Virus record (IMG/VR): IMGVR_UViG_3300029258_003011
Strand: one strand, 5' to 3'
Source: a virus
Length of the DNA: 50,432 nucleotides
Positions 16,943 through 43,439 of this stretch are shown piece after piece. Within the stretch, counting starts at the first letter, position 1, and every line of letters begins with the position of its first letter. The notes under the pieces were generated by a model. That model searched no databases, was not told the origin of the DNA, and saw only the letters and a list, made by a program, of their open reading frames with translations. The translations under genes and the position numbers were made by a program.

Positions 16943-17917
16943 TTAGAAATCCAAATCCTCAAATGAAAATGTTGGTTGTGTGGTCTTCTCAGTTGAAGGT
17001 TTTGCTGCGGTTGTATCTGGAGCAGCTGCTGTTCCTTCATTTTGGGGAGTTTTCTCCTCTCCTCCAAATGGTGGTGCATCATCGACCTGCATAAGACCAT
17101 CATTTCCACCCTGTTGTGCTTGGGGAGAATAACCGGCAGATGCTTGATTTGAATTGGTTGTCCAGTTAAATTTTTCATTGAATTTATCCAAGGACTTTTT
17201 TGCCAACTCAAGAATCTTTGCAACTGCTTCATTTGGAATTTGAATCCCTGCCGTTAGTTTAAACACTTTCTTTGGACCATAGTTTGAGGGAACTTCATCA
17301 ATGTTAACGCTGGCCACAAAACGTTTATTATTGACTACTGCTTTTTCAAATCGTTTGCTTTCTTCGGTTTGGGGTTCAAAGAAAGGTTCCAGATCCAACC
17401 CTGCCATCTCGCTGAGATAATCAGCGATTGGTGCGTATTTCATTCCTTTCCCTCTAAGGAATACGAAAGTTGGTTTTCCGTCTTCTTTCTTTACTGGTTG
17501 ACCACTTGCATCACACAATATTCCTGCTACAATCATTTGGGCACGGCATTGTTGACACCACGGATCTGCTGCTCTTTCTGCGGAATTTGTTCCACATTGG
17601 TGGTTTTGGTGAGTTCCATGCCATGGAGGCGGACCCTGCTGAAATGAAAAGCACTTCACAGTTTCTCTTCCACTCTGAGCATCTCTATCTGTTTTCACCA
17701 AAACTTGTTTCGTATGGGTAATAATCATATGGATCATATCCTTATTGTATTCTACCCCACGAATCTGAAGTTTTCCTGCTTCTTCCGAAATGTTTTCTTG
17801 ATTCGTTCTTGTAACTCCAGCTATATATACGCTGTGAAAGAACTCATCTTTCGGATCTGTCGGTTTTCGATCTGCATAACCTGTTGCTCCCAGATCTTGA
17901 TAATCACTGTAATCCAT
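16943..17917 (-). CDS. ssDNA-binding protein, T4 gp32-like (Zn-binding subdomain, acidic C-terminal tail)
   Basis: His/Cys cluster 'WHGTHQNHQCGTNSAERAADPWCQQC' (H...C-x13-C-x2-C) resembles the gp32 Zn site. The extreme C-terminus 'FSFEDLDF' is acidic. Strong SD AAGGAGG upstream. Confidence 0.5.
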   Translation of the reverse strand: MDYSDYQDLGATGYADRKPTDPKDEFFHSVYIAGVTRTNQENISEEAGKLQIRGVEYNKDMIHMIITHTKQVLVKTDRDAQSGRETVKCFSFQQGPPPWHGTHQNHQCGTNSAERAADPWCQQCRAQMIVAGILCDASGQPVKKEDGKPTFVFLRGKGMKYAPIADYLSEMAGLDLEPFFEPQTEESKRFEKAVVNNKRFVASVNIDEVPSNYGPKKVFKLTAGIQIPNEAVAKILELAKKSLDKFNEKFNWTTNSNQASAGYSPQAQQGGNDGLMQVDDAPPFGGEEKTPQNEGTAAAPDTTAAKPSTEKTTQPTFSFEDLDF

Positions 17918-17961
17918 TGTGCTTTTCCTCCTTTGTGATGGTTGATTGAGTATTAATTGTT

Positions 17962-18603
17962 TTACCTATTTGGAATAAGACACCAATTTGAAAAGTTTCT
18001 ATCCTCCGGCAATGTCATTATAGAAAATTCCTTGCTGAACCAACATTTGACATGCTGACTTATCAAATCGTTTGACAATATGTGTACTGAATTATATTTA
18101 GGAAGTTTTGTAAAATCTGGATCTTCAATAGTTATTGGTTTGACTCTCCTAACTTTTTCATCCGTAATGGGTGGGATGATTAAAGTTGGATGGGGACAAT
18201 ATATAATTACCAGTCTTTTACCAACCATTCTAAATATTTCATTCTTATACATATACACATTTGTGTCCAGATCATATAATACTTTATCAGCATTAAGAAC
18301 CCTGTCAATTGAAGTATGCTGTCTACAAAGAACCCCATTTTTTGATTTATCTTTGCAGTCTTTGCAATCTGGCTGGTTAACTTTGTAGTTAAATCCTCGG
18401 AGTTCAAACTTAGAATCCGCTGCTTTATTAAAGTAAAACATGATTCTTCTTTTATTCAGGAGAAATTTTATCAAAGTTATTGCATATACGTCAACTTCTA
18501 ATTTCTCTGTAAATTGCTCAGCTGATATTACTTTCATGATTCCCCCAGATGCCAAAATTGCAAAACAAAAACGACAAAAACGAAAAAATGTTAAAATAAC
18601 CAA
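17962..18603 (-). CDS. Hypothetical protein (true start possibly at internal Met ~18537, 'MKVISAEQ', preceded by GGGGGAA)
   Basis: 213-aa ORF. The N-terminal 22 aa (FRFCRFCF) look like read-through of an A-rich non-coding tandem 9-mer (acaaaaacg x2). No motif recognised. Confidence 0.35.
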   Translation of the reverse strand: MVILTFFRFCRFCFAILASGGIMKVISAEQFTEKLEVDVYAITLIKFLLNKRRIMFYFNKAADSKFELRGFNYKVNQPDCKDCKDKSKNGVLCRQHTSIDRVLNADKVLYDLDTNVYMYKNEIFRMVGKRLVIIYCPHPTLIIPPITDEKVRRVKPITIEDPDFTKLPKYNSVHILSNDLISQHVKCWFSKEFSIMTLPEDRNFSNWCLIPNR

Positions 18604-18612
18604 GTCCGTCGC

Positions 18613-18732
18613 CCAATCTTTCTAGACTGACTTAAACGAAGTTTGTTGACAATACAGATAAATTAGTAAATGAATACTAAATTTAAAAGTATCATGCAAC
18701 AAACCGTGTTTAAATCAATCTAGAAAGATTGG
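18613..18732. repeat. Nested long inverted repeats (14-bp ccaatctttctaga/tctagaaagattgg outer; 8-bp gtttgttg/caacaaac inner)
   Basis: Outer perfect 14-bp arms at 18613-18626 and 18719-18732. Inner 8-bp arms at 18641-18648 and 18697-18704. A TTGACA hexamer lies within the loop. Potential ~120-nt cruciform or structured RNA. Confidence 0.6.
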
Positions 18733-18938
18733 ACAACGGAATGGCTTTCTACTTGAAGCACATAAATTAAATTACCGTAGTATTTTCTTTATGCACATAT
18801 TAAAATATAATAAGATTGAGGAGATTATCTAATCTTCCCTAAACCAATTTCCTCTATTATGACATATCGAAAATTGGCTCTCACTATATTGCTACATAAG
18901 TAGCCAATGGCTATCTTATGTTTTTAACTGCTTGATCC

Positions 18939-18958
18939 AAGAGTCTCTGACTCTTTTT
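18939..18958 (+). terminator. Plus-strand intrinsic-terminator-like hairpin (aagagtc-tct-gactcttttt)
   Basis: 7-bp stem, 3-nt loop, T5 run on the plus strand only. Lies in a region with no plus-strand CDS, which suggests a short plus-strand transcript. Confidence 0.35.
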
Positions 18959-18988
18959 GAGAATATTATAGGCATTCTCGTCACCTCT

Positions 18989-19264
18989 TTAAGTGTTATC
19001 AATAAGAACTTTGGGAACCTTCAATCCAAGAAATTGTGCAACCTTTACTGCAATTTCTCGTTCTGCAGAATATAAAAAAACTTCTACTCTTCGAATCAAT
19101 TTCTTTTTATTTTTACTTCCAACTTCACCGGCAAGATTTTTGGACGCCTTTAGTCCAAGGTGATCTCTTGCTACCTCTACAACTTGCTCAGAATCTTTTT
19201 GATACAAACAATTTATGATTCGACGAACAAGTTTTTTCCAGTTTTGCTCAATATAAGAGCTCAT
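18989..19264 (-). CDS. Hypothetical small basic protein isolated between two long non-coding regions
   Basis: 91 aa, K/R-rich ('SKNKKKLIRR'). Flanked by a 385-nt and a 305-nt non-coding gap. Preceded by a 20-codon uORF. Confidence 0.4.
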   Translation of the reverse strand: MSSYIEQNWKKLVRRIINCLYQKDSEQVVEVARDHLGLKASKNLAGEVGSKNKKKLIRRVEVFLYSAEREIAVKVAQFLGLKVPKVLIDNT

Positions 19265-19267
19265 GGA

Positions 19268-19330
19268 CTATCCAGTTTCCTGACTAAAGTTGATATTTTC
19301 TTCAACCAACCAGACTATAAATTCCCTCAT
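19268..19330 (-). CDS. Candidate 20-aa upstream small ORF / leader peptide (MREFIVWLVEENINFSQETG)
   Basis: Strong SD 'AAGGAGGAAGAAGAC' then ATG. Stop TAG lies 3 nt before the ATG of the 91-aa gene. Too short for the ORF track. Confidence 0.25.
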   Translation of the reverse strand: MREFIVWLVEENINFSQETG

Positions 19331-19391
19331 GTCTTCTTCCTCCTTTACACTAAAAGTTAATTTCCAACATAAAATTATTTTTGCCGACGTA

Positions 19392-19416
19392 GGAAGAAAT
19401 ATACTCCATTTCTTCC
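19392..19416 (-). terminator. 9-bp stem-loop (ggaagaaat-7nt-atttcttcc) in the 305-nt non-coding region
   Basis: Perfect inverted repeat, flanked by A/T-rich sequence on both sides. Strand symmetric. Confidence 0.4.
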
Positions 19417-19505
19417 ATAACAGATAAAAATTTAAGGAACAATTTCTATCTACTGGAAATTAATATATATAGTATATTGGAGTTTTTATGATTTTTACCT
19501 TTTCC

Positions 19506-19570
19506 ATTTGAGTCGTTTTTGAATCTTTTTGTGTTGCTTATTTGAATCTTATTTGAGTCTTTTTGTTTTT
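19506..19570. repeat. Iteron-like direct repeats (tttgaRtc + T-run, 4 copies)
   Basis: 'tttgagtc' at 19508 and 19552. 'tttgaatc' at 19518 and 19541. Each is followed by T-runs, in AT-rich non-coding DNA. Confidence 0.5.
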
Positions 19571-27947: not shown

Positions 27948-27979
27948 TTTTATACCTCCAAAAAAAATTGACGTGCGCT

Positions 27980-28023
27980 GAGGAAATACTCTTTTAATTA
28001 TGTTCTAAAAAGAGTATTTCCTC
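27980..28023 (-). terminator. Strong 16-bp stem-loop upstream of the RNAP gene string
   Basis: 'gaggaaatactctttt'/'aaaagagtatttcctc' perfect inverted repeat with a 12-nt loop in the 86-nt gap. On the minus strand it is followed 15 nt later by T8 and the GGAGG RBS of ORF 27558..27947. Confidence 0.5.
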
Positions 28024-28033
28024 ACGGTTCGTT

Positions 28034-29482: not shown

Positions 29483-29640
29483 AATAATTCTCCTTATTTA
29501 GCTTCTTTTACAATATGACGTACCCCACACATATTGAGTTATAAAATAAAAACAAAAATAAAAAAAGGACTTTTTGATACCCTATTCGTAAAATTAATAT
29601 ATATTTTTACGCTGAGGTAAATGGAAGAGAACTGATAAAG

Positions 29641-40771: not shown

Positions 40772-41269
40772 TTATTTTATCTCCTCTCCTTCTGCATTAA
40801 AGAATTCAATTTTATCAAACACTTCGTTGAAAACCGTATCTACTAATAATGTTTCCAATTGTTCATGCATCCTATCTATAACATGTTCTGGAAACTTCCC
40901 TTTAGATGTTTCTCTTCTCCTTTTACATTCTTCAAGAGAAGTGGTCATGACCATAGCTCTGATGTTATATCCATATTCTTGAGCTATAGATGACCACATT
41001 TTTACTGTATTGATATTAGTATTTGTTTCATCAACGACAATGTTTAATCCTCGTATCATATGTGCTCTAACCATAGTTCTTGCTATAGCGCCTATATGAG
41101 GTTCAACAAGATGATTAAAATCTGATCCAAATGCCAATCGAATATCATCTCTGCTTATAATATGATACCCATAAACACCTTCATTAAAACCTTTGCCAAT
41201 AATATAATCATCGACAAATGTTGATTTACCGCTTCCTGGCAGACCTACCATTATTATGAGTTCGGTCAT
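40772..41269 (-). CDS. Polynucleotide 5'-kinase domain protein (T4 Pnk kinase-domain-like, no phosphatase domain)
   Basis: 'IIMVGLPGSGKSTFVDDYI' and 'ISRDDIRLAF' align with T4 Pnk 'ILTIGCPGSGKSTWAREFI' and 'INRDDYRQSI'. 'NIVVDETNTNINTVKMWSSIAQEYGYNIRAMVM' aligns with '[33 protein letters not shown]'. Confidence 0.7.
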   Translation of the reverse strand: MTELIIMVGLPGSGKSTFVDDYIIGKGFNEGVYGYHIISRDDIRLAFGSDFNHLVEPHIGAIARTMVRAHMIRGLNIVVDETNTNINTVKMWSSIAQEYGYNIRAMVMTTSLEECKRRRETSKGKFPEHVIDRMHEQLETLLVDTVFNEVFDKIEFFNAEGEEIK

Positions 41270-43031: not shown

Positions 43032-43439
43032 CTATTGCACTTTCCCTTTGAATAGAAAATATTCTGTGATCTTAGTGCCTTTCATTTTAGTCACTTTAGT
43101 GGATACAAAGTGATACAATCCTTTTATCTTTCTGCCGTTGAAACGTACCACCATATGTGCTGTTGAATATTTTTCAATGGTACATGCTCCATCGTCAAAT
43201 TTAACCAATTTTCCAGCACCATAACCTGTATTTATCACTCCTATAAATAATGCTTCCTCTTCTGAATGATCATGGGTTTTTACTGCCAGTACTTTTGGTC
43301 CTGCCTCAAGTGGTACTCCTTTACGAACTGCAAAGGAATCCCATATTTTACTATTTGGTTTTCTAAATCTTATATCTTGATGCTTCCCTGCTCTTTTAGC
43401 ATAATGGTCAACAACTATGAATTTTGATTTGCTTTGCAT
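43032..43439 (-). CDS. LigD-type 3'-phosphoesterase (PE) domain protein
   Basis: 'FIVVDHYAKRAGKHQDIRFRKP...WDSFAVRKGVP' and 'VLAVKTHDHSEE' / 'YGAGKLVKFDDG' match the LigD PE consensus (FVVQKHDATRLHYDFRLE...WAVPKGPS...VEDHPLEY...YGAGTV). Confidence 0.6.
   Translation of the reverse strand: MQSKSKFIVVDHYAKRAGKHQDIRFRKPNSKIWDSFAVRKGVPLEAGPKVLAVKTHDHSEEEALFIGVINTGYGAGKLVKFDDGACTIEKYSTAHMVVRFNGRKIKGLYHFVSTKVTKMKGTKITEYFLFKGKVQ

Follow-up and report, generated by a model that had tools for sequence, protein, structure and literature searches.

The 50,432-nucleotide (nt) stretch of viral DNA in the IMG/VR record IMGVR_UViG_3300029258_003011 (the window hereafter, meaning this whole stretch) carries all of its genes on the minus strand, with intergenic gaps mostly of 25 nt or less. 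The question addressed here is what occupies one of its three large gaps. An original prediction, made from the letters of the sequence, had described positions 18604-18988 as gene-free and rich in nested inverted repeats, and had proposed a non-coding RNA locus or a replication origin. The gap is real and most of the others are as small as claimed, but the boundary had to be moved. The downstream gene begins at ATG 18537 and not at TTG 18603, the start of a mechanical open reading frame (ORF) call (17962-18603, 213 amino acids, aa), since the 372 homologues of its product found in metagenomes are all about 191 aa long and align from residue 1. With this start, the gene-free gap extends over 18538-18988 (451 nt), 66 nt longer than first described. 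Judged from comparison with relatives, it holds an unusually long, cis-acting RNA hairpin, conserved throughout the family and accompanied by a U-run motif; the structure is well supported. The element is more likely a cis-acting part of the phage messenger RNA than a free-standing gene, and its most likely role is to mark a site of cleavage or termination of the phage message, not an origin of replication.

Fold and conservation of the long hairpin

All the repeats quoted in the original prediction are present: a 14-bp inverted repeat (ccaatctttctaga at 18613-18626 and tctagaaagattgg at 18719-18732, with 92 nt between them), an 8-bp inverted repeat (gtttgttg at 18642-18649 and caacaaac at 18697-18704), an apical atact/agtat palindrome, agatta-tc-taatct, tagcca-a-tggcta, an agagtc-tct-gactct pattern with a T5 run (18939-18958), and the 9-mer ACAAAAACG, twice in tandem (18565-18582). 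The nested repeats are pieces of a single, imperfect inverted repeat, whose arms of 51 nt are 80% complementary in the DNA. The hairpin proposed for them stands; the cruciform is not supported.

On the minus (coding) strand the RNA hairpin spans 18592-18751, with a core helix at 18605-18740, an apical loop at 18669-18674 and a weaker outer stem reaching 18592/18751. Its predicted fold has 69 pairs, including 9 G·U and 42 A-U pairs, and a free energy of −81.8 kcal/mol (z −14.5 against dinucleotide shuffles). The plus-strand RNA folds at −56.1 kcal/mol with a single G·U pair. This difference of 25 kcal/mol arises because nearly all mismatches of the DNA repeat read as G·U in minus-strand RNA but as A·C in plus-strand RNA. 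Counted at 62-69 pairs, the stem continues without a break for at most 33 of them, after which come small 2x2 and 3x3 loops. No other hairpin in the 50 kb is as strong (score 70, versus 34 for the runner-up), and this one is far beyond chance.

Loci were fetched around homologues of the 191-aa protein (2 + 80 + 40 + 3), and a very stable structure was found immediately 5' of this gene in nearly every one. The hairpins were searched and aligned in 109 distinct loci by a strand-neutral procedure, treating G·T and A·C alike. In 101 of them no more than 100 nt, and mostly 45-70 nt, separate the end of the hairpin from the ATG. The element thus recurs in relatives, which are uncultivated large tailed phages and come from sediment, soil and hypersaline metagenomes and from IMG/VR contigs of up to 277 kb. 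These 101 hairpins have a median length of 95 nt and a median of 37 pairs (range 21-71), 98 of them having at least 22 pairs, and in 68 of 78 loci no better hairpin exists anywhere in the locus of about 5.5 kb. Stem sequences diverge widely between clades; the stems of relatives L124 (71 pairs, −101.8 kcal/mol) and L003 (64 pairs) are comparable to that of the window.

Two lines of evidence bear on the strand that is kept paired. Across the 109 distinct loci, the coding strand of the hairpins holds 3342 Watson-Crick pairs, 394 G·T and 67 A·C, a G·T to A·C ratio of 5.9:1, whereas the best chance hairpins in neighbouring coding DNA hold 113 G·T and 97 A·C (Fisher test, P = 9e-18); in 95 of 101 loci the coding strand folds more stably than its complement. 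The other line is covariation. MAFFT with RNAalifold recovered only 10 pairs in a 22-sequence clade because indels broke the register, and covariation was therefore measured on the three closest sequences, a limited sample: the window, L124 (83% protein identity) and L003 (72%). Standard pairs fill 92.6% of the pair cells, versus 30-46% in slid controls, in which partners were moved by 1-3 columns while the relatedness of the three sequences was preserved. Of the 64 pairs, 22 are altered on both sides yet still paired, and none of 500 shuffles matched these values. The covariation that the original prediction had suggested looking for in related phages is thus seen, as paired two-sided changes, with both L124 and L003.

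These comparisons show that base pairing is under selection on the coding strand only, and the element is very probably a functional RNA structure of that strand. The strand-asymmetric mismatches do not support a function as duplex DNA or cruciform, for which symmetric mismatches would be predicted. Of the proposed RNA locus, the structured RNA is borne out by the G·U asymmetry, the covariation and its retention by about 100 relatives, but it belongs to the minus strand and not to the plus strand that had been emphasised. It is scarcely credible that the element is spacer without meaning, or what remains of a palindrome created by faulty replication, given a position kept in 101 distinct loci despite identities of only 50-83% in the flanking protein, together with the compensatory changes and the wobble bias.

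A second conserved feature follows the hairpin. The coding strand carries three tandem copies of a U-run motif (UUUUUUCG, UUUUUGUCG and UUUUUGUUUUG; 18561-18588, minus strand), which are the reverse complement of the ACAAAAACG repeat; the A-rich 9-mer first noted there is accordingly the other face of a conserved coding-strand motif and not an iteron. In most relatives the motif (TTTTTGT) is single-copy, typically (G/C)(G/C)UUUUUUGUUC or CUUUUUGUCGUUUUU. TTTTTG occurs in 82% of loci versus 13% of background segments, and coding-strand U-run motifs lie within 100 nt before the ATG in 159 of 212 cases over all loci. The run sits about 25-35 nt 5' of the ATG, at a median of 16 nt from the stem (mode 15-19 nt, 89 loci); a run of at least five U lies 0-4 nt from the stem in only 11 of the 89. 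In the window, the motif precedes the ribosome-binding site GGGGGA (18541-18546) and the ATG (18535-18537) of the downstream gene, which together occupy 18535-18546 on the minus strand.

The 5' arm also contains a palindrome, CAAUCU-UUCU-AGAUUG (18716-18731, minus strand), mirrored in the 3' arm by CAGUCU-AGAA-AGAUUG (18614-18629, minus strand). Relatives again have a local palindrome or small hairpin 8-15 nt into the 5' arm, with a sequence that varies by clade (CGAUC-AUUUUA-GAUCG in L124; GUCAC-AUA-GUGAC and CCAU-UUCG-AUGG in others) and, in a few cases, a UUCG or UACG cap. Such a palindrome could be an alternative local hairpin or a protein-binding site. Folded alone, the arms barely beat shuffles (mean z about −0.8 to −1.0, both arms alike), and we consequently treat the nested palindrome as a lead and not as a result. 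A separate observation concerns one clade alignment of 22 loci (A4, e.g. L016, L045, L005): the 5' arm (ACCGUCCUGUCACAUAGUGGCUGUUGAUAAAGCUUUUAUUUCC) has changed far less than the 3' arm, where drift proceeds by substitutions compatible with G·U pairing. This G/U-rich arm may reflect either a mechanical constraint imposed by wobble pairing or a second, sequence-specific role.

A candidate processing site and its rivals

The reading placed first, and held tentatively, is that the element is a cis-acting RNA between two cistrons, serving as a processing or stability site of the double-strand-specific, ribonuclease III (RNase III) type. It lies between a small conserved ORF and the 191-aa gene, in the block that follows the RNA polymerase genes of the phage. 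The hairpin would be transcribed within a polycistronic message, for which the co-directional neighbours and the lack of an adjacent U tract make read-through transcription plausible, and host RNase III would cut it as double-stranded RNA of at least 22 bp. Cleavage would split the upstream from the downstream message and give them independent stabilities, and the U-rich, single-stranded leader would leave the 191-aa gene with an exposed ribosome-binding site. For RNase III of E. coli, the idealised substrate has 22 bp (PMC3867540). The window hairpin exceeds this length as an RNA duplex of the presumably transcribed strand, and since nearly every copy does so, cleavage would be the default expectation if the element is transcribed in a bacterium. 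The cutting step itself is a conjecture to which we give somewhat less than an even chance.

The window comes from a large tailed phage, with the RNA polymerase beta' and beta subunit genes encoded just upstream of the hairpin region. It encodes a baseplate protein and a cell-wall amidase, which point to a tailed phage of a bacterium, as well as a type II topoisomerase, a ribonucleotide reductase, a RecA/UvsX-like protein and RtcB. RNase III is usual in bacteria. A comparison of polymerase beta subunits led to the nearest reference phages, with only about 28% identity in that protein, and the gap region had no nucleotide match among 50,697 phage records.

Several observations weigh against RNase III processing. 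Stems of 40-75 bp exceed the roughly 22 bp that the enzyme needs, a length that cutting alone does not explain. The helices are mostly regular, whereas sites of the T7 type carry internal loops or bulges that restrict cleavage, and no such loop or bulge was found in the window hairpin. Neither the U-run 16 nt downstream nor the nested palindromes have an assigned role in this model, and no RNase III domain was found in the scanned ORFs of the 50-kb window. Relatives are also binned in both archaeal and bacterial metagenome-assembled genomes (MAGs), which do not fix the host.

The binning deserves a comment of its own. A host search of genome contigs gave small contigs only, and the MAG bins that contain them disagree in taxonomy. 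The contigs of the group concerned, including the 223-kb contig of L051/L085, L126-L130 and those of proteins P0065 and P0114, sit in bins labelled Thermoplasmata, Heimdallarchaeia/Heimdallarchaeaceae, ANME-2, Promethearchaeota and Izimaplasma. Such conflict suggests mis-binned viral contigs, and host labels based on these bins are consequently not to be trusted.

The extreme length, the fixed spacing of the U-run and the nested palindrome, which RNase III processing leaves unexplained, keep two other RNA-level readings as serious rivals. One is a non-canonical terminator or attenuator closing the RNA polymerase gene block, in which the extreme stem would stop a processive or antiterminated (possibly phage) polymerase and the sequence from the U-run onward would be the leader or promoter of the next unit; this is possible, on the unlikely side. 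The hairpin does stand at a module boundary, a median of 40 nt past the stop codon of the small ORF (68 loci), and other gaps of the window also bear hairpins, such as 28033-27948 (17-bp stem, 10-nt spacer, U8, ribosome-binding site). Long stems confer resistance to processive antitermination (PMC10325885), a matter discussed for the jumbo phage 201phi2-1 (PMC11512511). The position of the U-run cuts both ways: in 21 of 89 loci no more than 10 nt separate it from the extended stem, and its usual displacement of 15-19 nt speaks against termination. So do the AU-rich stems of 21-71 pairs, compared with 7-9 bp in ordinary terminators and 15 bp in TerR of pLS20, itself termed extraordinarily long (PMC10325885), the presence of a canonical terminator elsewhere in this phage (50318-50355), and the scant space that some 57 nt between hairpin and ATG leave for a separate promoter. 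A scan of the gap for sigma-70-type promoters gave nothing above shuffle expectation. A canonical intrinsic terminator was rejected, there being neither a U tract 0-2 nt from the stem nor a short, G+C-rich stem.

The other is a regulatory or stand-alone RNA acting by binding a partner and not by being cut, for example a small RNA derived from a 5' untranslated region (5'UTR), a switch between nested hairpins and long helix under the control of the neighbouring proteins, or a double-stranded RNA decoy. We regard it as unlikely. The clade-varying palindrome inside the 5' arm, with its occasional UUCG or UACG caps, the much better conservation of that arm in one large clade, and the tight linkage to two conserved genes of unknown function would all suit a bound partner, and jumbo phages do have positionally conserved, 5'UTR-derived small RNAs (PMC11512511). 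Beyond the clade-level motifs, though, the stems change freely, as fits a structure-only role; lone arms fold barely better than shuffles; the apical loops show no special motif (UNCG and GNRA loops are not enriched); and the resemblances of the neighbouring proteins are weak (E 0.014), the fold of the 191-aa protein being unrecognised. The arms have no complementary target elsewhere in the window, and a base-pairing guide or target RNA was rejected for want of any match of at least 13 nt there. That the long helix is specifically a double-stranded RNA device needing its full length, whether switch or decoy, appears quite doubtful. As a switch between nested hairpins and full helix, it could be read by the winged-helix-like small protein or by the zinc-type 191-aa protein, timing expression after the polymerase genes; as a decoy, it could occupy host enzymes or sensors of double-stranded RNA. 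Known RNA families offered no guide: Rfam 15 at the gathering threshold gave nothing in the window and nothing at the element in 20 relatives, a permissive scan of the region matched nothing but models of plant microRNA precursors, with scores far below threshold (the mark of a generic long hairpin), and no tRNA or tmRNA was found.

A DNA-level role, the other half of the original prediction, is improbable. The element might be an origin or cruciform, a single-stranded DNA hairpin (a priming or loading site for the lagging strand), or a pair of palindromic operators bound by the adjacent helix-turn-helix-like protein. There is a large inverted repeat, nested palindromes occur twice about 100 bp apart, a small helix-turn-helix-like ORF adjoins, and G·T wobble is tolerated in single-stranded DNA too; the coding strand would moreover be the lagging-strand template if replication is co-directional with transcription. 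Against this, the cumulative GC skew falls monotonically across the window and straight through the site, with no inflection. Iterons and initiator boxes are lacking, the sole direct repeat being the coding-strand U-run, and the 5.9:1 excess of G·T over A·C is not the symmetry predicted for duplex or cruciform. Operators need no flanking complementarity of 30-70 bp, and the remainder of the gap is structured on the coding strand only.

Neighbouring genes and other features of the window

The gene downstream of the hairpin (17962-18537, minus strand) encodes the conserved, Cys/His-rich 191-aa protein and always lies 3' of the hairpin. Upstream, the 'next gene' of the original prediction proved real and conserved, although a single-sequence scan for it had found nothing. 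Most relatives carry an ORF of about 50 aa with the motif KLRRRIEDFLR..P..LIKIA..IKVP, and the ORF of 91 aa in the window (18989-19264, minus strand) is a tandem duplication of that module. The encoded protein bears a weak, generic resemblance to the N-terminal part of winged helix-turn-helix domains (E 0.014).

The remaining 240 nt of the gap hold five small hairpins, again structured on the minus strand (z −5.6, versus −1.6 on the plus strand). H1 (18959-18979, GAGAAUG...UAUUCUC) is conserved in sequence in L124 and L003. H2 (18939-18955), preceded by A5 on the coding strand, an arrangement common to two relatives, corresponds to the plus-strand stem and T5 run that had been taken for a terminator; the pattern is there, but a consensus terminator scan did not list it and it is a small hairpin of the coding strand. 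H3 (18894-18921, ACAUAAG-AUAGCC-AUU-GGCUAC-CUUAUGU) shows compensatory changes, to ACGUAAG/CUUACGU in L124 and ACGCAAG/CUUGCGU in L003. H4 (about 18804-18890) and H5 (about 18757-18794), together at 18757-18890, are mostly missing or different in these two relatives and amount to structured, clade-specific filler that separates the small ORF from the long hairpin. All five lie on the minus strand.

The adjoining gap of 305 nt (19265-19569, minus strand) contains four copies of GAYTCAAAW within 54 nt (19506-19559), a TATATATATTAATTT motif (about 19452-19468, with further occurrences near 29590-29605 and in the relatives L001 and L098), a 9-bp hairpin (about 19392-19416), and an ORF of 20 aa with a strong AAGGAGG site (ATG 19329). 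The motifs of this gap may be promoter or regulator sites. A layout like that of the long hairpin, on a smaller scale, occurs at 27948-28033 (minus strand), immediately 5' of a 129-aa gene that precedes the polymerase beta' gene: a perfect, AU-rich 17-bp hairpin, a 10-nt spacer, U8, GGAGG and then the start codon. This second occurrence suggests that hairpin, spacer and U-run form a general punctuation module in this phage. At 50318-50355 (minus strand), after a gene ending near 50400, there is a textbook bidirectional intrinsic terminator (A-run, stem of about 13 bp, U6), from which it follows that ordinary terminators are in use in this genome.

Other genes of the window were noted in passing. 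An 849-aa protein with Major Vault Protein shoulder and repeat domains (E 5e-20) is encoded at 14304-16853 (minus strand), in a block within 13000-18000 whose G+C content (about 0.41, versus about 0.32 elsewhere in the window) suggests an island of recent acquisition; the gaps of this island hold short, GC-rich hairpins unlike those in other gaps. The vault gene also lies 3' of the 191-aa gene in relative L123 and is missing from L001. A tie between the long hairpin and the vault gene, two genes downstream of it, was considered and rejected, as most hairpin-bearing relatives do not have that gene. A QueD/PTPS-type enzyme and a phosphoribosyltransferase hint at modified bases in the phage DNA, and a set of RNA-repair genes comprises the RtcB ligase, a P-loop kinase-like protein and a LigD-type 3'-phosphoesterase (base-modification and RNA-repair genes jointly: 557-1042, 5274-5687, 2712-3842, 40772-41269 and 43032-43439). 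In relative L089, an Rfam DUF3800-VI match (1422-1464; 42.3 bits, gathering score 35) has no connection with the hairpin, which stands about 1 kb farther downstream.

Significance and relation to known systems

If correct, these results add a new, widespread structured-RNA motif, present in about 100 distinct loci beside the RNA polymerase genes of poorly known large phages, and would reveal how such phages punctuate or process their long, one-strand transcripts. The hairpin is a simple positional marker for annotating this phage group, and it gives two conserved proteins of unknown function a testable partner. It is also a natural case of an extreme hairpin that is stable as RNA while wobble pairs disrupt the DNA palindrome. 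Were it to act as a switch or decoy, the large phages of this widespread group would possess a new RNA-protein module.

Several known systems resemble the element in part. Like 6S RNA, it is a long, mostly double-stranded rod with poor sequence conservation, and since 6S RNA mimics an open promoter, the idea is attractive for a phage carrying its own polymerase; it was rejected, the predicted structures having no large central bubble and no match to the Rfam 6S model. Plasmid sso origins, Frpo-type promoters and integron attC sites are strand-specific, single-stranded DNA hairpins of rolling-circle or conjugative elements. They too are long and imperfect, keep their structure while their sequence varies, and function on one strand only, whereas the present element belongs to a large, tailed, double-stranded DNA phage and stands in message orientation between translated genes.

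The small RNAs of jumbo phages, sRNAgp182 of phiKZ and sRNA005 of 201phi2-1, are derived from 5'UTRs and conserved by position (PMC11512511). The likeness, drawn from their description, is that a structured RNA stands 5' of a conserved gene, in large phages with their own RNA polymerase, and that location and fold are conserved more than sequence; position upstream of a conserved gene is indeed found here. The phage group and the neighbouring gene are different, and the present RNA is known from sequence alone. TerR of pLS20, with its 15-bp stem and adjacent U tract (PMC10325885), shares a stem unusually long for its genome, the unimportance of the sequence, and a place at the end of an operon. 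It differs from the present hairpins, which have 21-71 pairs, are AU-rich and have their U-run displaced by about 16 nt.

Closest in the proposed mode of working are the RNase III sites of phages, which include the R sites of T7, the N-leader and sib sites of lambda, and those of the early RNA of SP82. The present stems are 2-3 times longer (median 37, up to 71 pairs) and mostly without the characteristic internal loop, they are followed about 16 nt downstream by a conserved U-run, and their cleavage is a proposal. What the two share is the hairpin on the message strand, intercistronic or in a leader, placed between co-directional phage genes, in which the helix, of at least two turns, matters more than the sequence.

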